Part shown: positions 3,101 to 39,402 of the stretch, piece after piece | Layout of the letters: each line of letters opens with the position of its first letter | Position numbering within the stretch: position 1 is the stretch's first letter | Assembly (NCBI GenBank): GCA_000004695.1 | Contig: CM000150.2 | Span: 3,616,001 to 3,680,000, forward strand | Direction: 5' to 3' | Length of the DNA stretch: 64,000 nucleotides | Source of the DNA: Dictyostelium discoideum | Taxonomy: Eukaryota | Made by a program: the position numbers and the translations under genes | Notes under the pieces: model-generated | Told to the model about the DNA's origin: nothing | The model's input: only the letters and a program-made list of their open reading frames with translations | The model's database searches: none

Positions 3101-6100
3101 TAGTTTAGCACCATCAACTGCGAAAATCGGAGATACTATTACAATTAATGGTGAAAATCTAGATAAAGACAACTATGATGTTTATTTTAAAATCATTCAA
3201 GATTCATATTCTGAAGTCAAAGCAACAATAACATCAAGAACAGCAAATACTGTAAAAGTAATCGTTCCAAAAGGTTTTGGTGGTGCCTTTGTTCTCACTC
3301 AAAATAGAATCAATAAGTTAATCTCTAATAATCTTGAATTTTCATACCCATCATCAACCATTGTCAAAGTAATTAGTCAACCATTTAGTACAGGTATCAT
3401 CAATAGATTCTTTGTCATTGGTGAATATTATCGTTCATTAATAACCAATATCACCATTTATCCATACATCGATAATATTGAAAAAGAAGCAATTTATTGT
3501 GAAATTGAAAAGTATTGTCCAAGTTCATCAAAAATTCCATCAATTCCAGGATCAGAAGTAGGTCATCCATGTATTGATTCAACAGTTTACTCTGAGAATG
3601 CCCAGTTTTTCAATTATTCCAAGTATGATGTTTTTGTTTGTATCAAATCATCATTAGGTGTTGGAAGTGGTATCATTAAATTCCCATCACAAACATTTAC
3701 ATTCGCATACTCTTATAAAGCACCTCTCTTATATTATGCACCACCTGGCGCTCGTATTCCAACTGATGGTGGTAGTTTTCAATTGAGTGGCAAAAACTTT
3801 CCACCAACACAAGAAATCATTGATCTCGGTTTGAACACATCTAAAATCATTTGGAATAATGATAATTTTGTTACATTCAAAGGAACAAATCTTACAAATA
3901 CCAACATCAATTGGAAGAGTTCAGATACGATTGTATTTATTGCGCCACCAGGTTTTGGTGAGTGGATCACCGTTTCAGTAACTGTCGGTAAACAAGCGTC
4001 AACAACTACATACCCAGGTGATTTAGATGAACGTCCAACTGGAAATTATACTTTGCATTATCTATTTCCAACAATTGTTGATTTATCAGCAGTTCCAACT
4101 GATGGTGGTGAAACTATAATAAAAGGTGCCAACTTTATTCCAGCTATCTTTGTAGGTCAAATTAATAATCAATCATTAATTGGTTCGCTACATTCAGTCA
4201 CGTTTAATAATGTTTTATCTCCATCATGGACATGGATTAACTCAACACACGTAAAAGCCATCGTACAAAAAGGTATTGGTACAATCTCTCCAATGGTAAG
4301 AGTTGGTGGTCAAAGATCAGATTTGTACCAACTTTTTGCAACATTATACAAAAAACCTGAATTAGATAATAAAAAATATGAAAACTTTGCAAATAGTAAT
4401 ATTTTAATAACTGGCTCTAATTTTGTACCAGTTGGTGTTTCAGCAGGTTCATCAAGTTCTGTTAAAATTGGAGGTATTCCTTGTAACTCTGTAACATGGG
4501 TAGATTCAAAATCTGTTATTTGTAATGTACCAATTGGAACTGGTGATAATTTAAATATCCAAGTAACAGTTGGAGATCAACAAACCGAATTAAATGATTA
4601 TTTCTCATATTTAGGGCAATGCGATTTCCTCTGTAGCGATTTATCAAATTTAGTAAGTTTTTAAACATTTTAATTACAGAGAAAAAAAGAAAAAAAAAAC
4701 TAAAAAATACTAATATATTATCATTTTTACCTCAAAGGAATTAGAAAAAGTTATTAGAGAGAATAAAAAAGATTTAAAGAGTACTCTTTTATTAACAGGC
4801 GTATGTTTAGAACAAATCAAGCAATATAATCTTACATATATTAAAAATAAAATTGAATCAAGTTGGATTGGAAATTCAATTATTAATGATTGGACAAGTG
4901 GTAAATTCTATAACTATTTCAAATCATCAGAATCATACTCAACAGTTAAAACACTTGCAAAATATATTACTCCAAAGAATCCATGTATTTATGATAATAA
5001 AAGAGTAAAGAATTCATTAGATTACCTTTTCGAAATCAATTCAGATATTTTCCATTTAATTGAACTTTCAATTTCATCAAAAATCAGTTATCCAGATTCG
5101 CCATATCAAACTTATTTCTATAAATCATCAAGTAACCCACAGTATGGTCTTTCAATTATTACATTTGATTCAGCAATTTGTAGCTTTACAGAATCAACTA
5201 TTCAAGACTACCAAAGTGGAAAAGTATTACAATCATGTTCAATCATTCCAATTATAAATCAAGTAATTAATCCAACAACAACACTTCAAGCACCATATCA
5301 ATATTCACTTACAATTATTGGTAGATTATTTGATAGTTCAACTAGAATATTTTTATCAGGTTATGAATGTCCAATCATTGGTAATATTGTTACAAATCAA
5401 AATGATTATATTCAAACTCTTAGTTGTTCAGTACCATCAGAAATCAAATCATACTCAGCCTCTCCAATTAGTTTTTACAATGGTTATAGTGAAAATAATA
5501 TATATAATTTCTTGTTGGATTTTAAAAAATCATTCTTTTTTATATATCCAATTTCAACAGTAACTCAAATTCAATACCCATCAAGTGGTCCAATTCAAAT
5601 GAATTCTGAAATTAAAGTAATTGGTTTTAATTTCTTCCCATATGGTATTACAAATCCAAACCTTAAAGTTTTTATTGATGATCTTGAATTAACTGATACT
5701 ATCTTTGGATTAACAAGCATAAATGGAGTTGATTCATTTTCATTTATTGCTTCTGGTTTAGGTTCTTTAAAGTATGTAAAAAAAAAAAAAATTAAAAAAA
5801 AAATTAAATTAAATTATTAATATATAAATTTCTTTTTAAAAGTTACATTCAATTATTTTATAGTAATAGTTTACCAATGATTATAAAAAATGGTGTTAAA
5901 TTAGAATTTTCATTTGAAAGACCAATTATTAATAGTATATTACCAACAAATGGAGATTACAATACAAAAGTTACAATTAATGGTAATAATTTTAGAAAAG
6001 GTCAATCAGTAAAAATTGGAGACTTATTAGTAAATGATATTGAATTCATTTCAAATCAAAAGATTATTGTTTCAGCACCATTTGGATTTATTAATGGACT

Positions 6101-9100
6101 TGTAGTTGTTTATTCAGATGATCAATACAGTTTAGAAGAAATATCATTTAGTTATCCTTCACCAATTATAGACCAAGTCATTCTTTCAAATTATGAATCA
6201 AAATTAAACACAACAGGTACAAATTATTTCACAGTAATAGGTAGAGGTTTAGGTACATACATTGCAGAACAAGTCGATATTATTATTAACCAAGAGTTTT
6301 ATGCAAGTTGCGAATTCGATTTCTGTGAAAGTTTAGAAATTATTGAAGATATAGATATAAAAGATCAAGGAATTTGTCAATATTTAAAATATAAAAATTA
6401 TCAATATATCAATGAAAACTTTGATATATTAAATTGTATTTTAGCTGATTCAATTGGTAAAGATAAATCAATCAGTATCAAAATTTCAGAATTCCAAAAC
6501 CAAACTTTCACCTACTCTTATTATGAACCATGGATTGAAAAACTAACACAAAACTCTTCATCAGCAACAACTGATGGTGGTGAAGTAATCGTTATAAATG
6601 GTTACAACTTTTTACCATTCGAAAATTTAAGTCCATACTATGAAAACAATGAAACTATTGCACAATGGTTAAATCAATCAGAAATATTAATTGGTGAAAG
6701 CTATCTTTGTCAATCAATTAATTGGACCAATTCCTATGAATTAAATTGTACAATCCCACCGGGAATTGGTGTTAATCATACAATCATTGTAAAAGTAGGC
6801 CTTCAATCATCAAATCATACTGATTATTTGTATTCTTACAATCCACCAAAACTTGATACAATCAATAATTCCACCAAAAATGAGACACATTACTATTCTT
6901 CAACAGATGGTAACAATGAAATTATAATAACAGGTAATAACTTTATTCCAAAAGAGTTATCAGATCATTACAACCAGAATGAAAATAAAACTATAAATTC
7001 AATACTATTAGGTAAACAATATTGTAATGAAACTATTTGGATTAATTCAACAATAGTTAAATGTAAACCATTAGCAGGTATTGGGTCAAATTACAAAATA
7101 ATCATTAAAGTTGGCAATCAAAATTCAAACGAAACCGTTTACTTCTCATATGAGAAGCCAATTTTAGATTTAAAGAATTACACAGGTTCAACAAATGGTA
7201 ATACTGAAATTACAATAACAGGTATCAACTTTATTCCAAAACAATTAGCAGATAATAATAATTTCAATCAATCAGAGAACTATATAATGATTGGTGATAA
7301 TAAATGTAATGGAATTATTTGGATCAATTCAAGAACAGTTAAATGTAAACCAATATCAGGTACTGGTACCAATCATAGAGTTATCATAACAGTTGGTAAT
7401 CAAAACTCAAATGAAACGGTCTACTTTTCATATGATAAACCAATTTTAGATATTAAAAACTATAGTAGTCCAACTGATGGCAATACTGAAATCACAATAA
7501 CAGGTGAAAACTTTATCCAAAACTATAATCAAGAAAAACATAATGAAAATGATAATTTCGTTAGAATCGGTGAAAATAAATGTAATGAAACAAAGTGGAT
7601 AAATTCGACAACAATTAAATGTAAAATAATTCAAGGTATTGGTTTAGATTATAAAATAGTTGTAACAGTCGCCAATCAACAATCAAATGAAAATGTTTTC
7701 TTTTCATATGAAAAACCAATGATTGACAGTAAAACACTATTAGCATCAACCAGTGGCAGTGAAACTATTAAAATTACAGGTACCAATTTCATTCCATCAA
7801 TTTTAGTAGAACATTACAACAATATAAAAAATAAAAATAACTCAATAAATTCAGTTACTATCAATAACGAGTTTTGTAATGATATTGCATGGATTAACTC
7901 AACAGAACTAACATGTAAACCATTAGCAGGAGTTGGAACTAATCATACCATATTCATTTTAGTTGGAACTCAAAAATCAAATCAAGTAAAATCATTCTCA
8001 TATAAACCTCCAAAGATTGAAGAGTTTAAATACTACACAGCACCAACACATTCCAATAAAATTATTACTATAACTGGTGAAAACTTTATTCCAATCGAAT
8101 TATTATCAAAAGACAACAGCAATAGTTCAGTACTTATTGATAATATAAAATGTGAAGAAATCAAATGGATTGATTCTACAAAAGTTTCATGTCAAGTTCC
8201 AGTAGGTCAAGGTAAAGATTTATCGATTAAAGTTAAAATTGAAAATCAAGAAACTGAAGAAAATCAACAATTTTCATATGATAAACCATTTATTCAATCA
8301 ATCAATCCAAATAAAGGAAGATGTAATCAAGAAGTATTAATTACAATTCAAGGTGATAGTTTTGGAAAGAGTGATCAACTAATTAAAATTGGTAATAACG
8401 AATGTCAAGATATTCAATTCTATCCAAATCATACATTTACATGTAAAGTTCCAATCGTGGAGAATTCAATTAAATCCATTGTTTTATTAAATGTTGGAAA
8501 TCAAGATTCAAACGATAACATTACATATAAATACTATGGACCACCAGAAATTAAAAGTATTGGTTTACCATCATATCTTTCATTCAAAGGTGATGATTTA
8601 ATAACAATCATTGGTAATAACTTTATAGAATATGATGATGGATCTGATGAAATTGTTGTTAAATTTAATAATGAACCAACAGCTATCATTGAAAAAACAG
8701 AAACATCTATTAAAATTAAAACTCTTAGTGGTGATGAATTTAATTTACCAATTGCTGTAGAATTAAATGGTCAAATAAGTAATATCGATACTTCATTCGT
8801 TTACTCAAATCCAATAATTGAAAGTGTAACACCATCATCAAGTAGCTCAAAATCAAATACTCATATCATCATTAAAGGACATAATCTTGGATACTTAACA
8901 AACACTCCCAAAATTACAATTGGAAGTAGCAATTGTTTAAATATCAATACTATATCTCCAAATGAAGTTCGTTGTATAGTGTTGAAATCAAGCGCAGGCG
9001 CCAAACAATTAACATTAACCTATAAAAGTTATCAACCAACCTATTCACAATTCACTCATGATGATGACAGTGATAGCCACGATGACAGTGGAAGCCATGA

Positions 9101-10352
9101 TCATAATGATCCTAATGGACCAAAAGATACTATAATAGGTATTATCGGAAGTGCAATTGGAGTATCAGTATCAGGAGTCTTGGCTGGATTAATACCAACT
9201 ATTTTCGGTAATGGAACATCAGTAGCCACTACGGCCGCAACAACAAGGGCGGTAGATACAGCGGTAGCGGCAGCAACTACAGCAGCAACAGCAACAGCCA
9301 TTGCCAGTGCAACGATCGAAGGTGTTGCTGTAGTCGTTACAAGGGTATCAGTAATAGCAGCAACAGCAGGTGGTGTTATCGTTACTGCAATTGTAACAGC
9401 AACAGCCATTCTTATTTCAGGTGGAAGTACACCATCACCAACCCCAACCATAACTCCAACCATAACTCCAACCATAACTCCAACTATTTCACCAACTCCA
9501 ACACCAACCGATAACTATTGGGTAAGATGTATGGTCGATTATTCAAGATTAGCTTTACAAGTCGATAATCTTTACGGTCAAGATATAGTATGTATTGATG
9601 GTAATGGAATTTCATCAATTTTCAACGAATCATTCTCTTGTAAACCTGATCTTATTAACGATGGTATGATATGTGCTCAACAACATCAAGATGGAACAAA
9701 TTCAACAACCACATTTGGTAATTCAACATTAATTTGTCATATTGACCCAACAAAATCATGTGAAATTTCACCACCATTCATCATACCATCCGATCCAATT
9801 GAAGATGATGAATATTCAAATATTTTAGAATGTCAATATAATCTCATTGAAAATTCATTATCAACACACTCTAATAATAGTCCATTAAGATGTTATAATA
9901 ATGAAACTGAAAATTACTTCATTATGAATACTACACTTTCATGCTCAAAAGATGAATCATTAAGTCAAGATAAAGATACGATTTCTTGTTTATCAGATAC
10001 AGATGATACTCAAATCTTTTTCTTTAAGAACTCAATTACATGCATTACAGATTATCCATACTATAAATGTACAATGAAATCTCAATCATCACCAGATGAT
10101 AACATAATTCCAGAACCAACATTACCACCAACTCCATCAATTGATGATGATTCCACATGTATTTATGATTCAGCCAATCCATATTCAATAGATCTCCAAC
10201 CAACAACTGGAACTAATGTCAAATGTCCAACAAATGAAAAAGAACTTCATTATGATCTTTCAACTTATCTAACATGCACGGATAATATCACCCATAAAAA
10301 CTCCACCTATTCAATTTCTTACTCAACTTATGTTTGTATTAAAACTAAATAA
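147..10352 (+). CDS. Giant multi-exon gene: signal peptide, 3 N-terminal Cys modules (each ends ..CDP...K(T)KYxCP), about 20 IPT/TIG repeats, GC-rich Ala/Thr/Val-rich hydrophobic segment, (PT)n linker, C-terminal Cys-rich domain (tgr-like IPT/TIG family protein, about 3100 aa)
   Basis: ATG at 147 with a hydrophobic N-terminus (MVKFKIVISFLLFIIYCNCFTFG). Proposed exons: 147-781, 929-1407, 1494-1925, 2021-2075, 2148-4652, 4738-5771, 5864-10352. Donors are GTAAGT at 782, 1408, 1926 and 4653, GTAAGA at 2076, and GTATGT at 5772. Acceptors are T-rich ..AG. Phases are consistent across every junction except inside exon 2. Exon 7 carries the repeated motif ..ITGxNFIP..CNxxxWINSTxxKCKxxxGxGxNxxIxVxVGNQxSNExxxFSY.KP, typical of IPT/TIG domains. 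The stop codon TAA is at 10350-10352. Confidence 0.75.
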
Positions 10353-10495
10353 ATAAAATATAAATAAATATAATCTTTTATCATTAAACGTATGGAAGGA
10401 TCTTCCTTCCTTAAATTTCAATAAATTATTATTTTTTTTTTTTTTTTTTTTATGTTTAGATATTATTTATTTTATATATTTAATATTGTAATCTT

Positions 10496-10700
10496 TTACA
10501 TATAATGATTCAGATGCTGAACCAGTTTATTCCTCACCAGTGCATTTGCCGAATTGAGCAAGAGAGTTACACTTGGCACGATGTAAATAAACTTACGAGC
10601 AGCTTCAACGTTGGCAGATTCACCTTTCCAAGTGAAGGGTACGAACGTTGAATTCACCGTTCGTACCAATTGTTCAGAGGTGAGCAAATTTGGAATTCAT
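10496..10700. ncRNA. Candidate structured small RNA: about 200-bp GC-rich island in poly(A/T) intergenic DNA, with a perfect 10-bp stem
   Basis: Local GC is much higher than the flanks. A perfect hairpin GGTACGAACG (10638-10647) / CGTTCGTACC (10658-10667) encloses a 10-nt loop. The only long ORF (minus, 10496-10687) is not ATG-initiated, its nearby AAAATG is out of frame, and it uses rare codons (CGA, ACG, CCC, TCG, CTG). Confidence 0.25.
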
Positions 10701-10796
10701 TTTAAAAAAAAAGTATGTAGTATATCGGTGTAATACAAAATATTGGAGAATTAAAAAAAAGGAAAAAAAAAAAAATAATAGTAACAATAAAAAATG

Positions 10797-10831
<35 letters not shown>

Positions 10832-11245
10832 TTTTTTGATCATTTTTTATAACTTTTTTTTTTTTTCTTATTTTGTCTTCTTAATTTATTTTTCGTTTAT
10901 TTTTATGGTTAAATAATATGAAAAAAAAATAAAATATAAAAAATCGGGAAGTGAATAAAATGAAAATTCATTTCGCCAGTAAAAAGTTTTTTAAAAAAAA
11001 AGAAAAAAAAAAAATTTATATTAATTAACACAAAGCCTATTACTTTGATTTCTTGTTTATTTATTTGGTATCAATTTTTTTTTAAAGTCTTTACCTCTTA
11101 AAAAAATTTTATTTTTATTTTATTTTTTTTTTTTTTTTTTTTCATGTGGGTAATATTTCCATTTTTTTTTTTTTTTTTTTATTTTTATTATTTTTTCTTA
11201 ATTTTATGAAAAAAAAAAAATAAAGGCGCACATTCTCAACGTTTT

Positions 11246-12552
11246 ATGAAAATGACATCAAAAATAGATGAAATAGATATTGATAATGGAGAGGAGGTTT
11301 TCGAAGAAATTGAAGATTTTGAAGACGAAGATAGTGATGATGGTGTATCTAAATCCAAATCAGATTCAAATAGAAAACGAAAGGTTTCAACACCAGCCCT
11401 AAAACCACATCCACCAATACCAAAATTACCATATAATGACCGTGTATTTATTATTCAACAACCTAAAAATGATACAAACATTATAGATTATGAAATTTTA
11501 ACATTACCAAGTCCAAAACATAGTAAGATTAATTATTATAATATTTTTTTAAAAAAAAAAAATAAAAAAAAAATAAAAAAAAAATAAAAAAAAAAACTAA
11601 CATTTTTTTAATCATTTCAGAATCAGTAAAATGTAGATATATATTAGATAAAGAGAATGATAGAATATTAGAGATTAATAAATTTAATAGTAAACCATCA
11701 TCATGGTTCATTGATAATGGTGTTAGACATGATGGATCAATGTATTTATCATCAGACATTGATCCATTGTTCCTTTTAATACCATTCCTTGAAAAGTATA
11801 AATCACTTCATAAAAATGAATACCTTGAAATTTCATCAATCATTAATGATTCATATTATTGTAATCTTTCAAAAATTCCTTTTAAACATTCACAATTATC
11901 TTTAATTTGTGATTCTAAAGGTAATATAAATCATTTATTAATTATAATAATTATAATAATAATATGTTTATTAATTTTTTTTTTTTTAAAAAAAAAATAT
12001 TTTATAGAAATTGCAGGATCAAAATTATATAGATTAGAAGATGAAAAATTATTAATATGGTTAAGATGTAAAGTAAAGAATATTTCAAATTATTTAAAAG
12101 AAACCAATACAGATATTTTTAAAACTTCAAATTATGTAAAAAAAGATTTATCATGGGAGACATTGTATACAATGTCAATTGGATTCGTTAGTGAATATCT
12201 ATCAGAATCAAATTGTAAAATGTTAAATCAAAGTTTTAATCTATTATCAGCAACAGCACAACAAACAATTAAATCTGAATCAGAGTATTTAGTTTACACA
12301 GAGAGAATAATAGATGAACCTGAACCACCAAAATCAAAAAGAGGTGCCTCTAAAAAAGCACCTGCAAAGAAATCTCCTGTAAAAGGTGGTGGAATTTCAA
12401 ATTTCCTCTCTCTAAAAAATGATACACCAACACCAATCACAGTGCCATCACTTAAACCTTCAAAAAAATCTGAGCCAATAATACCAACTACAACAACAAT
12501 AGCAGCAGAAACTAAAGGGAAAATAACAGATTTTTTTACTAAAATAACATAA
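11246..12552 (+). CDS. RNASEH2B: Ribonuclease H2 subunit B (RNASEH2B ortholog) with C-terminal PIP box
   Basis: Exons: 11246-11522 (donor GTAAGA at 11523), 11621-11920 (acceptor TTTCAG; donor GTAATA at 11921), 12008-12552 (acceptor TTTTATAG). The translation contains SSWFIDNGVRHDGSMYLSSDIDPLFLLIPFLEKY, which matches the human RNASEH2B HSWFINQS...PVDPLFLLLHYL core. The basic tail ends in KGKITDFFTKIT, a PIP-box-like motif as in RNASEH2B. The second intron is 87 nt, in frame, and removes a low-complexity (I/F/K) stretch. Confidence 0.8.
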
Positions 12553-12623: not shown

Positions 12624-14336
12624 TTATTTCTTTATTAAATTTGGTTGAATTCTTCTTTTAGGTTTGACATCAGTATTATTATTATTGTTATTGTTATTAT
12701 TAATTGTAGATGAAGATAAAGTAGAAGGTGTTATGGTTGGTGTTTCTTCATCAGTTTTTTGTTTTTTTATTTGTTCATTTTCATCTATTATTGAATCATT
12801 TTTTACAATACCACTAGAGTTTATATTGTTATTATCATCATCATCATCATTATCATCATCATCGTCATCATCATCACCGTCGTCATCATCATTTGATTCA
12901 CCAACATTACTATCATCATTATTATTTTCATTATCATTACTATTGTTATTATTGGGGTCATTCTTTCTTTTTAAATTGTTTTTATTTTCATTACTATTAT
13001 TGAATTGTTGTTGAAGCTGTTCATTGATTGTAGTGTTTACGATTGCTCTTTGTTTATATAATATACATTGTTTTAATGATTCTGGATATTCAGATTCTGG
13101 TAAAGGATCACCCAATTCATTTGGTGCAAATGAAACATATGAACAAAAACCATCAGATGAAGTAATCAATAGGATGGTACCATCAGATGACCATGATACA
13201 TCAGTTATTGATGAATAATGTAAATTTGATAGTATGGAAATTGGTTTATCGGTTTTTTGTGTATCATAAATTGCAACTGTATCTAGTGATGAAATTGCAA
13301 ATATCATACGATATTTAATATTTAATAAATTATTATTATTTTCATCATCATCGTCATCATCCATATCCATATCATCCATATCCATATCATCTTCATCATC
13401 ATCTTCAATATCATCATCTTCGTCACTATCGCTATCAGTATCATTATCATTATCATTATCATTATTGGTATTATTATTATTATTAATATTATTATTATTA
13501 TTATTATTGTTATTATTATCGTCATTATTATTGGAATCATCATCATTATTATTATTATTATTATTATTATTTGTATCTGGTCTTAATTTAAAAATTATTG
13601 GATTAAATTTTACAACTACGGTTGGATTATTTGATGGTAGATGTATTAGTGGTCTATCTCTAATATGTCTTGAGAAAATGTATGAAGTACTTTGATATTT
13701 TGAAGTTGGGGAATCTCTGAATTTGCCTGTTGGTGTGATAAATATTGAACCATCTGGTGACCATGATGGTCTTCTAAAAAAGGTTGATGCTCTTTCATCA
13801 TAAAACATTCTATGACTAACTAAACTTTCTTCTTTTATTTTTGCTTCATCCAGTTGTTGTTGTTGTTGTTGTAGTTCTTCAATCTCAGCTATATCTTCAT
13901 TTGGAATTGATGTATTATTATAAGATCTTCTAGATAAAACATTTGATATAATTAAATTTAATTTCTTTCTACTATTTGTATTTACATCTTCAATTGTAGC
14001 ACTATTTACTACATTATTACCTGTACTATTACTATTTGTATTATTATTATTACTATCATTACTATTGCTGTTGTCATTGTCATCAGTGTCTTCACTATCT
14101 TTATCCTTTTCTGAAACTGGTGTAGAGGAAGAAGGGCATGATGATGGTTGTGTGATTATTTTTTTTTTTTTCTTTTCATTTCTATATATTCTGCAAGTAC
14201 CATCAGAACTTTGAGTAATCATAAAATCATTTAATGGATCCCATGATACACCTTGAACATAATGACTATGCTCTGTAATTAATTGATGATGTGTTTCTAT
14301 TTTTTTTTTTTTAAAAAAAAAAATAAAATAAAATAA

Positions 14337-14402
<66 letters not shown>

Positions 14403-15009
14403 TATAAAATTTTATAAAAGTGAATATACATACTAGATAGAGGACTCCAAATTGAAACACTATTATCAGTACTAACAGTAGATAGGTATTGACCATCACA
14501 AGACCAAGAGAGATCATATACATCAGTAGTAACACGTAAAACGGTTACAATTGACCAAATCTCTTTCATTGATGAGTCAGATGGTGGTATTGCATTTTGA
14601 TTTAATCTCCAAATTACAATTGAACCATCATCACTTCCTGATGCTAATAAATTACCACCAGGTGAAAATCTTGCAATATTAACTGGTTTGACATGTTTAG
14701 CTAAACTTGATAAAAATTCAACTGATAAATGTCCATCTTTATTCTTTGTATATCCCCATATCTATATTATAGAAAATAATAATAATAATAATAATATTAA
14801 TAATAATAAATAATAATATTAATAATAATAAAAGTGTTTATTAATATTAGTTTAAAAATAATAAATTAATTAATATGTGAAGTAGCTAAGCTTACTTTAA
14901 TTTCATTATCAAAACCAGTAGTACAAAATTTATTTGATGTTGGGTCAAAATCAGCAGAATAAATTGGATCTTTATTATGCCAAAGAATCATAACGGTTTC
15001 GCATTTCAT
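12624..15009 (-). CDS. chaf1B: Chromatin assembly factor 1 subunit B (CAF-1 p60, CHAF1B ortholog), WD40 protein with a large acidic/poly-N insertion
   Basis: Minus strand, three exons: 15009-14896 (MKCETVMILWHNKDPIYSADFDPTSNKFCTTGFDNEIK, donor GTAAGC), about 14760-14434 (IWGYTKNKDGHLSVEFLSSLAKHVKPVNIARFSPGGNLLASGSDDGSIVIWRL..., donor GTATGT), and 14272-12624. The sequence matches human CHAF1B over long stretches: [72 protein letters not shown]...[32 protein letters not shown]. The middle exon boundary is approximate. Confidence 0.8.
14341..14400. repeat. (ATT)n microsatellite, about 20 units, inside a CAF-1 intron
   Basis: Perfect tta/att trinucleotide run at 14341-14400. Confidence 0.8.
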
Positions 15010-15590
15010 TTTCTTTATGTTGCAGCAAATGGAGGTAATGTTATGAAAATTAAAAAAAAAAAAAAAAATTTGAAAAAACTTTATTTATTTATTGGTTTTT
15101 TTTTTTTTTTAAATTTTAGCGCGAAACCGATTTTTTTTTGAAAAAATAATAATAAAAATAAAATAAAAGAAAAGAAAAGAAAATAAAAATAAATATTACA
15201 TTTAAATTACAAATTTTTAATTTTCCCAAGATAATCTAAGTATTAGGAGGAAAAAAAAAAAAAAAAAAAAAACAGATTTGTTGCATTCATTTTTTTATAA
15301 TTTAATTTCATGTATTTTTGAGTGCTCTATTTTTTTTTTTTTCAAGTACCAAATCTATATGTTTTATTAATAAATAATTTTTTTGTTAAAGTAACTTTAA
15401 TAAAGTTAAAAAAAAAAAATATTAAAATGTTGGGAATAAATATTGGAAAAAAAGAAAAAAAAAAAATAAAAGAGAAAAAAAAAAGAAAAAAAATGAGAAA
15501 TCACAAATTTTTTTTGTAATTTTTTTTTTTTTTTTTAAATTTTTTTTTTTTTTTTATTTATTTTATTTTAACCAATTAAAACAAATTATT

Positions 15591-17883: not shown

Positions 17884-19911
<2,028 letters not shown>

Positions 19912-23053: not shown

Positions 23054-25360
23054 CTATGACCTTTTGTTCGAATTTTGGCTCTGGTTGCTTTCATCAGTGT
23101 TGAACAATTTGTGACAGATTATCTTCCATAATTGGTGTGCTATTATTCCTATGAGATTGGGGAAGATTCTCTCAGTTCTGTTGTATTTTGATATGTCTAA
23201 GGTATCCATTGACCATCTGTGGATTTTGATGAATGATAATTTGTTAACTGTTGATATGATGGTTTTTTCAATATCTAGGATATCTTGGCATAGAGTGAAG
23301 AGGTGAGAATAAGGGTCTCTGAATAGGTGGCCACAGATCTTGCATCTGGTGTCTCTTTCGTGGTTGATACCTGGAAGTGATCTTGAGAAGAATCTGAAGA
23401 GGGTGTTTCTACCTTTTTGGTGAGAAATGCTGTTGATGTTTATGAATACTTTGGGTATTGCTGTGTTGTATCTCACCGCCCATAACTTCTGCCATTCTGT
23501 TCTTCTTGGTGTTGGGTGTCTGTCTTTGATCATGAGTTCGTAAATTTCTTTCAGTTTTAGTGGTTCATCATTGTCGTTTCTTATACAGTCTGGAAGTTCA
23601 TTTATCTTTGGATGGTTTTGGTAAAATTTGACTCTGAATACACCCCAGTGTCTGCACATATCGTTGAGGGTTGAAGTGTGGGCTTTTTTTCTACTTAATT
23701 GCTCCATGTACCATTCTTGTAAGGTATTGTTGTTGTTGTTGTAGTTGTTATGGAGTAGCCTGTTCATGTACCAGATTTTGAATGCTATATGTCTTAGTTC
23801 TATATCCCATAATTTTATGCCTCCTTCTTTCCAATCTGCATATGCTCTGTCTATTTTCATCATAGTTTTGTATTTTCTCTCTTCTGTATATGTATTCTTA
23901 ACTGAGGAGAATAAGAACCATCTGGTCATGTTATTGATTTCCTCAATTTGTTCTTCATTTAGATTATCCATGTATTGATGGTATGTTAATTTGGATAGAA
24001 CGTATGTTTTGAGAATTGTCATCTTTGCCTTCATCGTTATTGCTTGTGATTTCCATTTGATTAGATTGTTTTTCATTTCTTGGATTAAAGTGTTGTATTT
24101 TGAATTTAAACCTGTTTTGGTGAAATTGAGGCCAAGATATCTTTCTGGGACTGTAATCTCTTGGAATGGTAGATCGTGTGGTTTATCTCCTATTGCTATC
24201 ATTACTGTTTTCTCTTTGTTTAACGATGATGATGTTGCTGAGCAGTACTTTTGGATTTTAGTATTAATTTTCATTAGTTCTTCTGTGGAGTTTGTAAAGG
24301 TTGCTATGTCGTCAGCAAATGCAGTGAGTTTTCATGATTTGGAATTTGGTAGAGTGAAGCCTTTGATTGTATTATCATTGATGATATCTATTAGAAGTGG
24401 TTCTAAAACTAGAGCAAAGATTGTTGGTGATATTGGGTCTCCTTGTTTTGTTCCTCTTCTGATTGTTATTCCATTGACTAAAAAGTCGTTGATCTTTATT
24501 TTGTTTTTAGTATCTTTGAGTAGGTTTAGTAGGATCGCTGTGAATTTTGGGGGGATACCAATATGCTCTAATGTTCTTGTGATACTCTTGTGGCTGATTG
24601 AATCGAATGCTTTGTTAAAATCGTAAAAGGTAATGAGTGTATTGTTCTTTCTTTTGTTACTTATTTCTATTACTTCCTTCATGATCTGAATATTGTCTTG
24701 GATGAACCTGTTTGGAACAAAGCCTTTTTGAAATTTGTTGATAATTTTACTGGTGATATCTAATAATCTACTGTTGAGAATTTTGCTTAAAATTTTGTAA
24801 TCTGTATTGAGAAGGGTGATTGGTCTTCTATTTGAAATGTTTAGTTCATCTCCTTTTTTGAATATTGTTGTTATTACTCCTTCTTTGAATTTTGTGGGGA
24901 TTTCTTTCTTATTTGTGAGGAGGTCGTTGAAAGCTATAGTCAATATTCTTGCTATTGAGTTGATGTGGTACTTGTAGAATAGTGCATTGATACCGTCTAA
25001 ACCTGGAGATTTGTGGATACTTGAAGTTTTGATTGCTTTGGTCACTTCATGTATTCTCATCGGTCTGTCTATCTCGAGTTTCTTGATTAAATCAACGTCT
25101 ACTTCCCATTTTTCTAATAACTTCTTGTGGGTTTCTTCGTTATCTTCTTTCTCTTCATAGAATTCAACAAATCTTTTTGCTATGTTCTCTTTATCTGATA
25201 TGGTCTTATTATCTTTATCTTTTATTTGGAATATTGATTTATCTTTGGCTCTGGATTTAAGGATACTTGTGAGGTATTTGCTTGGTGTTTCTTGATGCAG
25301 GTGGAGTTTTAATTTGATATCCCATGCTTTTACCTTTTTAAAAAAAAAAACTCCAATCAT
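23054..25360 (-). pseudogene. Retroelement ORF2 reverse-transcriptase region, 5'-truncated and frameshifted between 24274 and 24332
   Basis: Two adjacent minus-strand ORFs (24332-25360 and 23054-24274) lie in different frames. The first has RT motifs (FYDFNKAFD; QGDPISP). The second has a CKICGH..C zinc-finger-like tail. Confidence 0.65.
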
Positions 25361-25463
25361 TCCTAAAAATATTTTATTTTATATTTAGAAAGGAATGATT
25401 GGAGTTTTCCAATCATTTCTAAAAATATTTTATTTTATATTTAGAAAGGAATGATTGGAGTTT
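25349..25463. repeat. Tandem palindromic hairpin units (GGAAAACTCCAATCATTCC ... GGAATGATTGGAGTTTTCC) inside the retroelement cluster
   Basis: Two units of about 55 bp with 19-nt inverted arms around an AT loop. One isolated arm is also present at 22681-22699, next to T19. Confidence 0.7.
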
Positions 25464-25467
25464 TCCA

Positions 25468-25510
<43 letters not shown>

Positions 25511-25733
25511 TGGATTAACAAGATTGATATATGTCCATCTGTGTTAATACGAGTTTTTATTTAATATTTATTTATAGGCTTATCATTTAAGCTGAAGGGT
25601 TATTTTAATCATATGAATTGATCTAAAAGATATAATATTTGGGAGAGATGATTCTGGAATACAATAGTAATTAGCTGTTGTTTTTCTTAGCTTGATCGTT
25701 GAGGTGAGAAGGATCTTAGGATCTTTGAAGTTA

Positions 25734-26549
25734 TTATGGTCTTTTGCTGATAGAGTTATGGTTGGATGACAGCTCCCTTGAATAATCGTTAAGTAGGAAG
25801 TCTATTTTCTTAAGCATTATGCTTGAGAGGATTGAGGATTTTTTTAATCTCCATCTGCGCTTGTTCATCTGTATGTTGGGTAGAGTGAAAGTGGTTGATA
25901 GGAAGTTGTGATCTGATAGAGGTATGTCGTTAATTTTTGGGGGGATTAGGTTCCTTAAGTATAATTGGCTGTAGTTGATTAAGCTATTGTTAAGGTATAT
26001 TCTGTCTAGTCTCCTTTCCAAGATTCTTGTGAGGTAATGTATCGTTCTTGAGAAGGTGGGTCTTTTATTTAGTTGGTCCATATCCATTAGGTTATTTGAA
26101 ATTCTGATGGCTTCGATTACTGTGGCCATCTCATCTGGGGATTGTGTTGTCAAGTTGCCTTGGTCATCACTTGATGTGTGATTGTCATTGAAGTCTAAAC
26201 AGTTGAAGTCGCCTGCTATGATGTCGATGTTTTTATTAGGGTTAGACGTAAGGTTGTGGTATTGGTTGTTGAAGTGTTTGTTTAGTGTTGAAGCTAGTGT
26301 TTTTCTTTTATCAGGTTGGGCCGGGGCGTATATGGCCAAGATTCTCGTTGTGGTATCTTTTATTAGAATGTCTGATATTATTAGTCTACCTTCTATTATG
26401 AATATTGGTGAGAGTTTTATGTTTTGGTTGTTGTGGTTTAGTATTCCTATTCCGTTGCCTCTGTTGGTTGCGCTAATGATGGAGCCAGAGAATAGCTGGT
26501 GTGCTTGTGTTGCGTCGGCGTTGAGTTCATTGACTATGGTTAGTGCCAA
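25734..26549 (-). CDS. Retroelement ORF2 N-terminal apurinic/apyrimidinic-endonuclease-like domain, truncated
   Basis: A 271-aa ORF with a GDFN motif typical of the APE domain of non-LTR elements. It ends in a stop, followed by a UTR-like sequence and A40. Confidence 0.6.
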   Translation of the reverse strand: MALTIVNELNADATQAHQLFSGSIISATNRGNGIGILNHNNQNIKLSPIFIIEGRLIISDILIKDTTTRILAIYAPAQPDKRKTLASTLNKHFNNQYHNLTSNPNKNIDIIAGDFNCLDFNDNHTSSDDQGNLTTQSPDEMATVIEAIRISNNLMDMDQLNKRPTFSRTIHYLTRILERRLDRIYLNNSLINYSQLYLRNLIPPKINDIPLSDHNFLSTTFTLPNIQMNKRRWRLKKSSILSSIMLKKIDFLLNDYSRELSSNHNSISKRP

Positions 26550-26653
26550 TGAGTTTGGGGGGGATTGGGATTTGATAAAGTCTGTTTTGTTTTTGAAGGA
26601 GGTGTCAGTGCCCCAACCTCTGACATTCCATTGGTTGATTTTGATTACTACTA

Positions 26654-27904
26654 TTATGAGATGATATCGATCTCCTCTTGGGAGTCGTATAGCTGCGGTT
26701 TGGATGGTGAAGGGTAGATACTCCCTATGAAGCTCTCAATGATTCCTTTCCTTTCTTTTTTGACAGGTGTCTTAGGGGTGGATGGGATGTAAGGGTTGCT
26801 TCTGTTTATTGTTGGTGAGAGTTGGTTGACTTCATTGTTTGAGTGGATTTCCTCGTTCTTGCGTTTATGTGATGGAGGGATGTTTAGTGTCTTCTCTCTG
26901 TTTTCCGAGGATGAATGGGTGTTAGTGCTCGTTTTGTTGGCATTGTCTTTTTGGATGGCGTTGGATGTTGTGGTAGTGGTTGTGGTGGGTTTGACAGATT
27001 GAGATTCTGCTGGGTTTTTGCGGGGAAGAGGTAGAGATGACTTTTTTGCTTGGGCTTTTTTCTCTTGGGTTGATTGTTTATCAGACTGATTGTTTGCTGG
27101 GTTGTTTGTTTGTTGTTGTGGTTTTGGTTGAGAGGATTTGATTGCTATCCTGTTTTGGGTGTTAGGAGGATCTGTCATCTCATCTTCTAATGGTTCCTCC
27201 GTGTTGTTTGTCTCTACTTTCTTGTTTTTCTTTTGTGAGGAGTAGGTTTTGGTGGCCGTTCTGATGGTAAAGTTTGCGATTTCTGTAATGTGTTGGCCAG
27301 ATTTCATTTGATCGCCTATTTTGCATTCTATTAGACCGAATACTATGAGGTGGTCGGTGGAGTATATAGTATTGTATATTGCATAGGGTATTTCTTCTGC
27401 AAAGGCAGTTTTGATGATGGCGTCCACTATTCCTGCCTTTTCTCTGGGAATTCTTACTCTTCTTGTGAGGACGTGGAAGTCTCTACTGGAGGTGATGAAG
27501 GTTCCCAATTTGCTTCTATCTCTAATGATATTTATGAGAGATTGTTCGTTTTTAATCATCAGGTGGATCGTTTTTCTAGTTCCTTTGCCTATGTATATCT
27601 TGTCGATTGGGATATCGTAGTTTGAGAGTGTTTTTCTCATTTCTTCTAACCCCTTGAGATCCATTTTGGGGAATTCGAGTGTAATTGGGTAGAATCCGTT
27701 GTTCTTCTCGTAGGTTGAGAGCGCAGTCATGTTCAATATGGTCTCGCAGTATTTGGAGATGTCTTTGAGGCCTATTGATAGTTTGGGGTAGGTCTCCTTT
27801 ATCTCTGCTGTTTTTGTGGAGAATTCCTTAATGAAGTTCTCCGATGCCTCGTCCATATGGGTGGAGGGGTTGGCCATTTTAGCCGCGTCTGCGTAGGAAT
27901 TCAT
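26654..27904 (-). CDS. Retroelement ORF1 (TRE-like)
   Basis: A 416-aa ORF starting at ATG 27904, directly upstream of the endonuclease/RT ORFs on the same strand. It has a Ser/Thr/Pro/Gln-rich C-terminal half. Confidence 0.6.
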   Translation of the reverse strand: MNSYADAAKMANPSTHMDEASENFIKEFSTKTAEIKETYPKLSIGLKDISKYCETILNMTALSTYEKNNGFYPITLEFPKMDLKGLEEMRKTLSNYDIPIDKIYIGKGTRKTIHLMIKNEQSLINIIRDRSKLGTFITSSRDFHVLTRRVRIPREKAGIVDAIIKTAFAEEIPYAIYNTIYSTDHLIVFGLIECKIGDQMKSGQHITEIANFTIRTATKTYSSQKKNKKVETNNTEEPLEDEMTDPPNTQNRIAIKSSQPKPQQQTNNPANNQSDKQSTQEKKAQAKKSSLPLPRKNPAESQSVKPTTTTTTTSNAIQKDNANKTSTNTHSSSENREKTLNIPPSHKRKNEEIHSNNEVNQLSPTINRSNPYIPSTPKTPVKKERKGIIESFIGSIYPSPSKPQLYDSQEEIDIIS

Positions 27905-28180
27905 CTCGATGGGATTCCTTTGAATCGGCGATTTGTAAGTTAGATCTGTAGATCGTGGTGGATTGGTGATTTTTTTTGAAAGATTGGTTAAAATTGACCG
28001 AGATTAAGGATAGAAAAGGATGAATTACTTTTCACGTGTATCTTGTATCCTCTTGATCGCGGTACGGTTTTTTCACTTTCCAATAATAGTTGTATTAAAG
28101 GTTGGTGGTGTTTGAAATCCTGCAACTCGGACCCACTTAATTTAAGGAATTGAACCGGCGATCAATTGTTTCCAGTTATA

Positions 28181-28185
28181 AAAAA
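28181..28185 (-). terminator. Pol III oligo(T) terminator of tRNA-Thr
   Basis: TTTTT lies immediately 3' of the tRNA on the minus strand (plus-strand AAAAA at 28181-28185). Confidence 0.7.
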
Positions 28186-28256
28186 GGCTCCTATGAGGAT
28201 CGAACTCATGACCTCTTCCTTACTAGGGAAGCGCAATACCACTATGCTAAGGAGCC
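28185..28256 (-). tRNA. tRNA-Thr (anticodon AGU)
   Basis: The minus-strand sequence GGCTCCTTAGCATAGTGGTATTGCGCTTCCCTAGTAAGGAAGAGGTCATGAGTTCGATCCTCATAGGAGCC folds as a cloverleaf. The acceptor stem is a perfect 7 bp. The anticodon stem CTTCC/GGAAG closes a loop CUAGUAA, so the anticodon is AGU with U33 and A37. The T arm is ATGAG-TTCGATC-CTCAT. The variable loop is 5 nt. Confidence 0.85.
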
Positions 28257-29717
28257 ATTTTTGAAATTTTAAAATATAAGACATCTATAAGTTAATTTTT
28301 TAAGGAAATTTAATTTTTTGTTATTTTTTTGATTCATTTTATTTTGTAATTTAGAGAATAGAATTAAATGAAAACAATGAAAGACCCTATATTCAATTAA
28401 AAGTTAAAATTCATGAATCTAAGTTTAAAAGTAATTTGAAAGAATTTACTAGTAAATTAAATAATTGGGTTGTCAATGAATTTTTTTTTATTATATGGAA
28501 GCATTTGGGATAAAAGTAAAATAGTTTTTACTTTTGAATATTTGTTTGGATGATGTGAATTGAAAATGGAATATTCTGTGTTTCTCCAAAGTGAAATTAA
28601 ATCCAAATATTCTTTCTCTAAACCATTTGTTTGTAATGGCTCCTCTTTATTGAAATCAGTTACAACGCCAGAACTATGATAGCTACGAAGTTTGGATTGA
28701 ATAATATTTCTTGAGTTATTTATATTATTTTGAATTTGAGATAAATCACTGTTGTATGAAGATTCATCGAATACCTTTTTGATTTCATCTTTGCACTTTG
28801 GGGCTTTTCTAGATTTTGTTACCGGAATTTGTTTTGTAATGATTTCAGGTTGTTCTTTAACAATATTAATTTCTTTGACAATTTTTTCTACCTCTTCATC
28901 CACTGTTACCTCTTCTGTGACAGCAACATCTGTCATTATTTCTTTTTTATTGGTAAAAGTTTCTTTTCTTGTTACTGGAACACTTTTAATTATTATCTTT
29001 TCATCTTTTAGTTTTCCACCAATGGTGCTAATTCCAAGAGTAACAATTCCTGTAATCCATGATCTAACAGGTGCATCTTCAGTAATTCTTTCTTCAAATG
29101 TATGTGGGACAGGCTTTTTTTCAATTCTTGTAATTGTTTTGGTTGGAACTATTTCTTTGACAGTTTAGTAAGAAATAACTTCTTTATCAACAAGATTAAC
29201 TTTTATTTCATTTATTGTTTCATTTTCAGTGTATTTCTCGTCGATTTCACAATCAAACACTTTAACAGTTTCATCTTTGTTATATTTTGAATTTTAATTA
29301 TCCTTTAAAAGAGCATGCTCTTTCAATTGCTTATTTAATTCTAAATGTTTATCAAATCAATTTTTGACATCACTGGTTTTACAAGATATTTAAATGATAT
29401 TACTGATGGATGATTTTAAAAAGTTGTAACCATTTTTTGACAATGTTTCAGTAATTTACAATTGAGTCTTAATCAAACCTTGTTTAATACCAGTTGAAGA
29501 AACCCAATCGATTAAAGAATTTTTGTTTTTAATAAATTGAGATAAATAGATTAACTCTTCATTTAAATCTATCAATTGTTTAGATTGATTTAAATTTGAA
29601 TTTCCTAAAACCAAATCTAATAAGTTTGAAAATTCCATTAGTTCATTTTTGTACCTTGATTTAAATTTGTTAATAAATCATTAAAAAGCTTCATTTCAAC
29701 GGAAAATATTTTAATTG

Positions 29718-29749
29718 GAAGGAAACCTTGAAAAAGCAAGGTTTCCTTC
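29718..29749. repeat. Perfect 13-bp stem hairpin (GAAGGAAACCTTG / CAAGGTTTCCTTC) with a 6-nt loop, inside the degenerate ORF region
   Basis: Seen directly at 29718-29730 and 29737-29749. Confidence 0.75.
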
Positions 29750-30185
29750 TAGCTTTATAATTTTCAATCTTTGATTTACTACCATAAATGAAAATCCAAT
29801 AAATTGTGAATGAGATGAAATTGAAATAAATTATCTGGCAATGAAACATATGAAAGACTATTAATCATTTCCTTAATAAGTTCTCTTTGATTTTGGTTTG
29901 GTGGAACATAGCTTTTATCATCTTCACTTGGTTTTGCAAAAATTGAAGCTTTATCACAACGTATTAAATTGTCAATAATTTTCTTTGATTGTTCATCAAC
30001 GGAAATGTTTCAACAAATTTTCAAGACTTTTTTTGCAATTTTGGAGAGCCAATTTACTTCTTGATGTTTTAGTGAATACAATACCCATGCATTTTTCAAG
30101 ATCTGATCCAACTTTTTGAAAGAGATTGCCATTTTTGTTCAAACAATCTTTTAAAGCGGTTAAGTAAAAAAAATCTTTTAAGAGA

Positions 30186-30247
30186 GAATTTTAATCATTA
30201 CCCACCAGTTGCTCCTAAGCTTTCATGGTGGGTAATGATTAAAATTT
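30186..30247. repeat. Perfect 22-bp inverted repeat with an 18-bp spacer (MITE-like or hairpin) directly after the stop of the P-loop ORF
   Basis: AATTTTAATCATTACCCACCA at about 30186-30207 is exactly reverse-complementary to about 30226-30247. The spacer is GTTGCTCCTAAGCTTTCA. Confidence 0.8.
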
Positions 30248-30730
30248 TGACTTTTTGATTTTGATATTTGATTTAATTAAACCATTAATTAAATCAACTA
30301 TTTCTCCACCGGAATCAGCATCACCAGCCAAATCCAAAAGATTGCCAAAATTGGTTATTTTTAAATTTGTAATTAATGTTTTAGAACCACTTCCATCACC
30401 AATTTCAAAGCCTTTCGAATTTTCACCCAATTTTAATTCTTCATTTTCATTAATAATAAAATCACTATCCAATAATTCAAAATAATTTGTTAAAGTAGTC
30501 TTTCCAGAGCCAGTTGGACCAACTAAGAGAATTGCATCTTCAATATTTCTTTCAAATGATTTTGAACAATTTCTAATGAAACCAATAATTGTTGAAACTG
30601 TTGAATATGTTTCTTCACAATGATCATAATTGTCCAAGGTATGAATGGAATCTTTAATTTTTAAATATTTATCATTATAATCTTTAATTTCTTCTCTTTT
30701 CATTTTCAATAAATAATTTTAAAAAGATTT

Positions 30731-30762
<32 letters not shown>

Positions 30763-31264
30763 CTAATTATGCAAAAAAAAAAACTAAAAAAAAAAAAAAT
30801 AAAAAAAAATAATAAAAAAAAAATACTATATCCTCTTAAATATTAAATCTACTTATTTTTTAAGATTTATAAAAAACTAATTTTAATTTTTTATTTATTA
30901 TTACTATTAAATGATTTTTTTATTTTTTGTGATTGTAATTAATATATATATTTATTTATTTATTTATTTTTTTTACAGTTTTTTCATATGCAATTAATGA
31001 TATTTACAAATTAATTAAAAAAAAAAAAAAATTTTTTAATTTCGGGCTTGGCTTGTTATGTAATGAAAATAAGTCAAAGGGGTCAATTTCTCGAAATTTT
31101 AATAAATAAAAAAAAAAAATATAAAAATAAAAAAAAAAAAATAAATCAAATAAAAAAAAATTCCAATACCGAAATTTAAACAATAGTAATTAAAAAAAAA
31201 AATTAAACAAAGGAACTTTTAAAAAAAAAAAAAATATTCATTCCTTATAAAATAATTTTTTGAA

Positions 31265-37374: not shown

Positions 37375-39402
<2,028 letters not shown>

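Follow-up and report, generated by a model that had tools for sequence, protein, structure and literature searches.

A very probable unitary pseudogene of a GIMAP-like GTPase family upstream of tRNA-Thr(AGU) on chromosome 1 of Dictyostelium discoideum AX4

Described systems and the AX4 locus

Unitary pseudogenes, which are non-processed and syntenic, lie at the position and beside the neighbours of their intact orthologs and carry frameshifts, nonsense codons and a ratio of nonsynonymous to synonymous substitution (dN/dS) nearing 1. The locus considered here, at 28457-30709 on the minus strand of a 64-kb window of Dictyostelium discoideum AX4 chromosome 1 (contig CM000150.2, positions 3,616,001 to 3,680,000), has these same features, whereas the poly(A) or retroposition signature of processed pseudogenes is absent from it. 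The window is the whole stretch of DNA that was analysed, and AX4 coordinates below refer to it. Based on the results presented below, it is very probable that the interval is a unitary pseudogene whose ancestor was one intron-less gene of ~730 codons. The case is no different in kind from other unitary pseudogenes; what is unusual is the zero net frame change of the decayed sequence, together with an independent decay in two relatives (FIW and FIY) and a tandem duplicate in a third (FIZ).

Short-range template switching makes perfect stems in one step (PMC5453318, PMC8794818). In these quasi-palindrome mutations a cluster of changes comes from one event that copies the adjacent reverse complement. 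The two hairpins of the AX4 locus show this pattern, each with a perfect stem where the ancestor had a few complementary bases at most; here the events lengthened a dead amoeba gene by a net +34 and +11 nt. The retroelements TRE5 and DGLT-A insert ~50 bp and ~15 bp upstream of transfer RNA (tRNA) genes, and TRE3 inserts ~100 bp downstream (PMC5006619). Proximity to a tRNA gene is the sole feature that the pseudogene has in common with TRE5-A, DGLT-A and TRE3; it has neither their domains nor their copy number, and its distance to the tRNA is wrong. Finally, GIMAP/AIG1-Toc (paraseptin) and IRG-type large GTPases of the TRAFAC class resemble the parent family in that a G domain is followed by a helical domain. 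The gene studied here is rapidly gained, lost and pseudogenised between close lineages, and such rapid turnover is typical of immunity GTPases. In general, the interest of the locus is modest and lies in a correction of the AX4 annotation, in two well-polarised candidate template-switch hairpins, and in an uncharacterised, recurrently lost GIMAP-like family that is spread patchily over Dictyostelium and apparently intracellular bacteria.

Decay of the AX4 copy compared with intact relatives

Four related Dictyostelium assemblies hold the locus in the same context, with a divergent MOSC-domain gene upstream and FNIP-repeat genes beyond. The order MOSC gene, GTPase-like gene, tRNA-Thr(AGU) is conserved, and the AX4 DNA is colinear with FIR, FIW, FIZ and FIY (Table 1). 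Identity to the intact open reading frames (ORFs) of FIR and FIZ amounts to 84-90% at the DNA level, without breaks in colinearity. A 731-aa conceptual AX4 protein, built by correcting frames by eye against a related locus, matches a 719-aa protein of 'Dictyostelium cf. discoideum' (P0003) with E = 7.5e-280. The proposal of the initial annotation that a P-loop NTPase gene was recently inactivated here is thus borne out directly by intact syntenic orthologs. The region itself is identified by its ORF at 30239-30709, which is 100% identical to the AX4 protein DDB_G0269808. Searches of the protein databases gave two AX4 hits, DDB_G0269808 and DDB_G0270970, both from the pseudogene locus; an exhaustive phmmer listing of these databases contains no further named AX4 family protein, and the pseudogene is the sole match by tblastn within the window.

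The coding origin of the interval is also apparent from its composition. The GC content is 22-31% over 28457-30709 and 12-16% in the flanking spacers, and open runs of 156 and 235 codons have chance probabilities of ~3e-7 and 1e-10, respectively, at a stop probability of 0.092 per codon. As initially annotated, three ORFs (30239-30709, 29456-29638 and 28457-28936) lie in one minus-strand frame, and the first encodes GTPase-like G1 (GPTGSGKTT, 30520-30494) and G3 (LDLAGDADSGG, 30337-30305) motifs, whose core residues are invariant across the family. The accompanying idea, a single frame interrupted here and there by one stop, fits only the 3' 1.2 kb (29677-28460). The five stops there (TAA in four cases, TGA in the other) stand isolated, and each is one base from a sense codon conserved in the orthologs. 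Of the 24 internal stops in the whole frame, 19 lie within 30241-29680, because the ancestral frame shifts seven times there; on translation, the best frame in this part jumps among the three minus-strand frames. The seven internal frameshifts total +42 nt, a multiple of three. Consequently, it is only by chance that the N-terminal and the C-terminal part are read in one frame, which explains the single-frame appearance reported earlier.

Lesions were scored against the intact FIR ORF, and their specificity to AX4 was judged from alignments to five orthologous or paralogous copies (FIR, FIW, FIY and FIZ copies 1 and 2, FIZc1 and FIZc2). AX4 carries 8 frameshifting indels, 5 nonsense substitutions and 5 in-frame indels (-3, +3, -3, -36 and -3). 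Loss of the natural stop lengthens the frame by ~20 codons, to a TAA at 28459-28457, and at column P113 a Thr takes the place of a Pro that 24 family members keep without exception. FIW and FIY have none of the AX4 lesions, which implies that decay was independent in the three lineages. In several cases the lesion is a 1-nt change within a homopolymer run, as might be expected if the lesions were errors of the reference assembly and the gene were intact in living AX4. However, the thirteen disabling lesions include two complex insertions and five substitutions to stop codons, and a dN/dS near 1 and a lost invariant residue come on top of them. Sequencing errors would not give this pattern, and we therefore see practically no chance of an assembly artefact.

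The selection analysis, by the Nei-Gojobori method in the ancestral frame with the G domain split off at the first 200 codons, is in line with a unitary pseudogene. Between AX4 and FIR, dN/dS is 0.78 overall and 1.02 outside the first 200 codons, and between FIR and FIW it is 0.68; the neighbouring MOSC exon gives 0.14 at an equal dS of ~0.10. This dS implies that AX4 and the 'D. discoideum' assemblies are related at the species level and are not near-identical strains. In the deeper comparison of FIR with FIZ copy 2, dN/dS is 0.39 overall and 0.18 in the G domain, and these low values imply that the gene was constrained for most of its history and that the constraint was relaxed recently. The two tandem FIZ copies differ by a dS of 0.088 with a dN/dS of 0.74. 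The public model of FIZ copy 1 (P0003) bridges the 11-nt deletion of this copy with an intron leading to a Gly/Ser-rich tail.

These comparisons show the course of decay. The ancestor very probably encoded an N-terminal TRAFAC-type G domain, then a helical domain, and then a low-complexity, partly hydrophobic C-terminal part. Constraint was relaxed in the AX4/FIR/FIW clade. In the AX4 lineage the eight frameshifting and five in-frame indels and the five nonsense substitutions built up, and at least one residue that is invariant in the family was lost. The AX4 locus should consequently yield no functional protein.

The public proteome presents the interval as two 'hypothetical protein' genes, DDB_G0269808 (154 aa) and DDB_G0270970 (282 aa, one intron), and the remainder would then be spacer or intron. 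In favour of two genuine functional genes, the model intron is bounded by a GT donor and an AG acceptor, and the Walker A motif is intact in the N-terminal ORF. However, the 'spacer' and the 'intron' resemble exons in GC content (24-28%), and both can be aligned, codon by codon, to the single long ORF that the intact orthologs have. The 'intron' of DDB_G0270970, at 24% GC like its exons, is homologous to codons ~403-512 of the intact FIR and FIZ ORFs and contains all five nonsense codons. DDB_G0269808 comprises only the first part of the G domain, with G1, a switch-I-like GSKTLITN (30388-30365; family consensus GSTTLxPN) and G3: it ends at the first frameshift-induced stop, so that its product would break off mid-domain, ahead of the conserved AKILxV strand, and it carries the substitution at the invariant Pro. 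In addition, dN/dS is ~1 over the part covered by DDB_G0270970. Two functional genes are therefore very unlikely, and the two models appear to be prediction artefacts that salvage open stretches. An intact transcript with introns that remove the stops had been named as the outcome that would speak against a dead gene; DDB_G0270970 is the only gene model of this kind, and its 'intron' is decayed coding sequence. A literature search for DDB_G0269808 or DDB_G0270970 found no mention of either. For the AX4 annotation this means that both entries should be pieces of one dead gene and that one annotated intron is spurious.

Three points count against a simple unitary pseudogene. The fragments may be transcribed, or the 154-aa N-terminal piece may retain residual function. 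The lesions were read in one genome of the AX4 lineage and may be fixed or polymorphic. Finally, the probable orthology to FIZ copy 2, and not to copy 1, was judged from higher identity and shared C-terminal features rather than from a tree.

Table 1. Features of the AX4 locus and of the corresponding loci in related genomes
Feature	Sequence	Position	Strand	Remarks
Whole pseudogene body	AX4 window	28457..30709	-	AX4 ortholog of ACTFIR_004457 (729 aa) and, probably, ACTFIZ copy 2 (731 aa)
DDB_G0269808, N-terminal fragment	AX4 window	30239..30703	-	154 aa; 100% match to P0001
DDB_G0270970 (P0068)	AX4 window	29638-29461 + 29125-28457 (exons)	-	282 aa
'Intron' of DDB_G0270970	AX4 window	29126..29460	-	335 nt, GT..AG; decayed coding sequence
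First disabling lesion, 1-nt deletion in A-run (A6 to A5), codon 151	AX4 window	30257	-	from alignments; yields TAA 30241-30239
AX4-only 34-nt insertion (+34 frameshift)	AX4 window	30168..30201	-	absent from FIR, FIW, FIZc1, FIZc2, FIY
Four single-base frameshifts	AX4 window	29648..30005	-	+1 at 30005, -1 at ~29819, -1 at ~29779, -1 at ~29648
+11 frameshift, 20 nt in place of 9 ancestral nt	AX4 window	around 29745-29755	-	contains the derived arm of hairpin 2
-5 deletion at ancestral last codons, natural stop lost	AX4 window	~28519 (28457..28519)	-	from C-terminus comparison
Nonsense codon 403, GAA to TAA	AX4 window	29458-29456	-	
Nonsense codon 425, CAA to TAA	AX4 window	29392-29390	-	
Nonsense codon 436, GAT to TGA	AX4 window	29359-29357	-	
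Nonsense codon 457, TTA to TAA	AX4 window	29296-29294	-	
Nonsense codon 499, AAA to TAA	AX4 window	29167-29165	-	
Hairpin 1	AX4 window	30187..30246	.	arms 30187-30207 (derived) and 30226-30246 (ancestral); 21 bp perfect, 18-nt loop
Hairpin 2	AX4 window	29717..29750	.	arms 29717-29730 (ancestral) and 29737-29750 (derived); 13 bp perfect stem 29718-29730 / 29737-29749
tRNA-Thr(AGU), ancestral downstream neighbour	AX4 window	28185..28256	-	ARAGORN
TRE3-like element, ORF1	AX4 window	26654-27904	-	
TRE3-like element, APE endonuclease domain	AX4 window	25734-26549	-	
TRE3-like element, RT domain	AX4 window	24332-25360	-	
TRE3-like element, further ORF	AX4 window	23054-24274	-	
Intact gene	FIR (L003, GCA_054859385.1)	6001-8190		one uninterrupted 2,190-nt ORF, 729 aa
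Intact gene, copy 2	FIZ (L002, GCA_054859235.1)	13339-15534		731-codon ORF
Tandem copy 1	FIZ (L002)	10001-12127		709-codon ORF; 11-nt deletion near end changes C-terminus
Split gene	FIW (L004, GCA_054859355.1)			single +2 frameshift; 334 + 388 aa
Decayed gene	FIY (L001, GCA_054859205.1)			three nonsense codons, Walker-A Gly-to-Asp, frameshifts, 3' third deleted

Candidate template-switch hairpins and the tRNA neighbourhood

Two of the AX4 frameshifts coincide with perfect hairpins. Both hairpins of the initial annotation are real; the second has the 13-bp stem given there, and the first has a perfect stem of 21 bp rather than 22. As DNA, hairpin 1 folds with -21.6 kcal/mol (z = -8.9) and hairpin 2 with -13.2 kcal/mol (z = -4.1). 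In both, the ancestral arm is present as coding sequence in the five other copies, while the second arm, an exact reverse complement of the first, is found in AX4 only. The ancestral arm of hairpin 1 encodes KILIITH(H/Q) and reads AAAATTTTAATCATTAC(C/T)CACCA (KILIITH) in the five other copies; that of hairpin 2 encodes QGFLP, and its sequence in the other copies is CAAGGTTTCCTTCC. Within the 34-nt insertion, 30187-30201 extends the inverted copy of upstream coding sequence, and 30168-30181 is a direct copy (13 of 14 nt) of downstream TTAAAAGATTGTTT (direct repeat D19). The direct copy distinguishes hairpin 1 from the described template-switch cases and implies that more than one switch would be needed.

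The two frameshifts may thus have arisen by short-range template switching in replication or repair. The nascent strand would have used the complementary strand of the neighbouring 13-21 nt as its template, and a weak quasi-palindrome would thereby have become a perfect hairpin. Two things weigh on the other side: the proposed origin is read from the sequence pattern, and five inserted nucleotides of hairpin 1 (CTCTC) were traced to no source.

It had been suggested that small palindromic insertions disrupted the gene. This is correct in so far as two frameshifting lesions made the palindromes, which are nevertheless AX4-only inverted copies of adjacent coding sequence and not the termini of mobile elements. 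Insertion and inactivation by miniature inverted-repeat transposable elements (MITEs) or other palindromic elements would fit the perfect inverted repeats, their restriction to AX4 and their position at a frameshift in each case. An inserted element, however, would bring both arms, and here one arm of each hairpin is pre-existing coding sequence in all orthologs. There is no target-site duplication, and the expected recurrence of the arms as MITE termini was not seen, since neither has a further copy within the 64 kb (with up to 3 mismatches for the 21-nt arm and up to 1 for the 14-nt arm). We regard a MITE origin as extremely improbable. The hairpins are best read as template-switch duplications and as footprints of mutation in unconstrained DNA, not as functional elements. 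If so, the locus shows, cleanly polarised by outgroups, how two template-switch events made perfect hairpins in neutral amoeba DNA.

The pseudogene lies upstream of tRNA-Thr(AGU) on the same strand and is oriented toward it. This position had raised the possibility of an ORF from a tRNA-targeted mobile element, either TRE5, DGLT-A or an unrecognised one, and Dictyostelium retroelements do target such sites (PMC5006619). The evidence leaves this reading with almost no probability. Pfam detects no reverse transcriptase (RT), APE, integrase or gag-like domain, either on the separate ORFs or on the frame-corrected protein, and gives sub-threshold P-loop matches only. In the protein searches the family is recovered from AX4 only at the pseudogene locus, with no second copy in the window, and the pseudogene ends 200 bp upstream of the tRNA rather than ~50 or ~15 bp. 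The interval is colinear with four other genomes, and in the three with an intact or nearly intact copy (FIZ, FIR and FIW) ARAGORN finds tRNA-Thr(AGU) downstream of the gene. This implies that the tRNA is an ancestral neighbour of the gene and not a target site tied to the pseudogene. Moreover, family members on contigs with bacterial neighbour genes are ordinary single genes.

Colinearity of AX4 with FIR extends from 30845 to 28120, 65 nt beyond the 3' end of the tRNA. A TRE3-like non-long-terminal-repeat (non-LTR) retrotransposon occupies 23054-28120 (minus strand) on the other, downstream side of tRNA-Thr. It starts where colinearity with FIR stops, and it matches a TRE3-type insertion that FIR lacks there. 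This copy may be defective, with ORF2 split into several ORFs.

In FIY, both the tRNA and the 3' third of the gene are replaced (L001, 11243-11370). The tRNA-Thr 5' end stands there instead in three incomplete tandem copies of ~26 nt each, followed by a poly(A) run and then by coding-like sequence that is unrelated; ARAGORN detects no tRNA at the locus. The replacement suggests a rearrangement in connection with retroelement activity at the tRNA.

On the other flank of the pseudogene, the divergent spacer toward the MOSC gene (30720-31260) has a GC content of ~10-15% and long poly(T)/poly(A) runs that form trivial inverted repeats, as is ordinary for Dictyostelium intergenic sequence. Two 675-aa ORFs at 17884-19911 and 37375-39402 were considered as a flanking inverted duplication, and this was rejected because their sequences are unrelated.

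The parent GTPase family and its putative bacterial relatives

With the N-terminal 156 aa as query, an exhaustive phmmer run gave 58 proteins at E < 1e-3. About ten of them are 590-770 aa long and share 35-40% identity, and a partial protein from D. purpureum reaches 54%. The alignments define the motifs G(P/A)TGxGK(S/T)TLxNY, GSTTLxPN and LDxAGDxDSGG; G1 and G3 are invariant, and a strand AKILxV(T/S)xQxS stands at the place expected for G4.

The family is uncharacterised, and the fold of its G domain is closest to GIMAP/Toc. The hits also include GIMAP4, Toc33/34, Irgb6, atlastin, GBP and mitofusin, and the sequence identity to GIMAP7 is 19%. The family differs from GIMAP/AIG1 proteins in two respects: the AIG1 profile (Pfam PF04548) matches neither the reconstructed AX4 protein nor P0003 nor eight other members, and no conserved G4 of the NKxD/TKxD type was seen in the two family alignments. 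Similarly, the Pfam profiles IIGP and Dynamin_N give no significant match, and only sub-threshold or marginal matches to MMR_HSR1 and RsgA occur in some members. NCBIfam and PADLOC return nothing above cut-off, the best being a weak LeoBC/dynamin-like match, and a profile search of PDB sequences recovers the P-loop only. The parent protein is predicted to function in the manner of the TRAFAC large GTPases of GIMAP/IRG/dynamin-like type.

Within the D. discoideum species complex, the history of the gene may be that of an immunity gene subject to birth-and-death evolution. The signs of this are the tandem duplication in FIZ, independent pseudogenisation in AX4, ACTFIW and ACTFIY, and a dN/dS that is elevated even in the intact copy.

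The non-Dictyostelium members, where their contigs could be inspected, have bacterial neighbour genes and lie on AT-rich contigs. One has as neighbours IS66 transposase genes and a NUDIX-autotransporter gene, and its contig has 30.5% GC. Another follows ClpP, ClpX, APH, nucleotidyltransferase and autotransporter genes; the ClpX of that contig is 75% identical to that of an alphaproteobacterial metagenome-assembled genome and 62% identical to those of Rickettsiaceae such as Candidatus Sarmatiella, and the taxonomic placement of the bacterial members is taken from this one neighbouring protein. A third lies on a 51-kb contig with TLC ATP/ADP translocase, Hda, MurJ and ribosomal protein genes, a gene content typical of obligate intracellular bacteria. 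A pattern scan of the GTDB representative genomes found no family member.

In a neighbour-joining tree, the Dictyostelium sequences form a clade in 100/100 bootstrap replicates, and this clade does not fall inside the remaining sequences. Transfer between the domains is plausible, in either direction. We suggest only tentatively, as something possible rather than probable, that this is an undescribed family of GIMAP-like GTPases of ~700 aa, confined to Dictyostelium and to AT-rich bacteria of the obligate-intracellular type. Such a distribution, if true, would imply gene transfer between amoebae and intracellular bacteria. It may further be speculated that, should the intact protein have a part in interactions of wild relatives with bacteria, its loss from the laboratory strain lineage would matter for the use of AX4 as a host model.

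Several further loci deserve mention in their own right. The family gene is repeatedly found beside an autotransporter-domain gene and a conserved 64-aa ORF (L005, 3170-8142; L007, 3604-8115; L008, 1036-5547), and these may form a functional gene cluster in AT-rich alphaproteobacteria. In the bacterium with the TLC translocase, the member is split into adjacent ORFs of 403 and 301 aa, 2 nt apart (L091, 10001-12120; L092, 2851-4970), either as a natural two-gene version or through another recent disruption. A distant relative, with 28.6% identity to P0062 (residues 21-481), lies at 2339-3950 of a 30%-GC contig from run DRR438466 (L090). It is interrupted by stops into ORFs of 179, 57 and 67 aa, and the surrounding 12.9 kb holds short ORFs only, a context that suggests a heavily pseudogenised genome.

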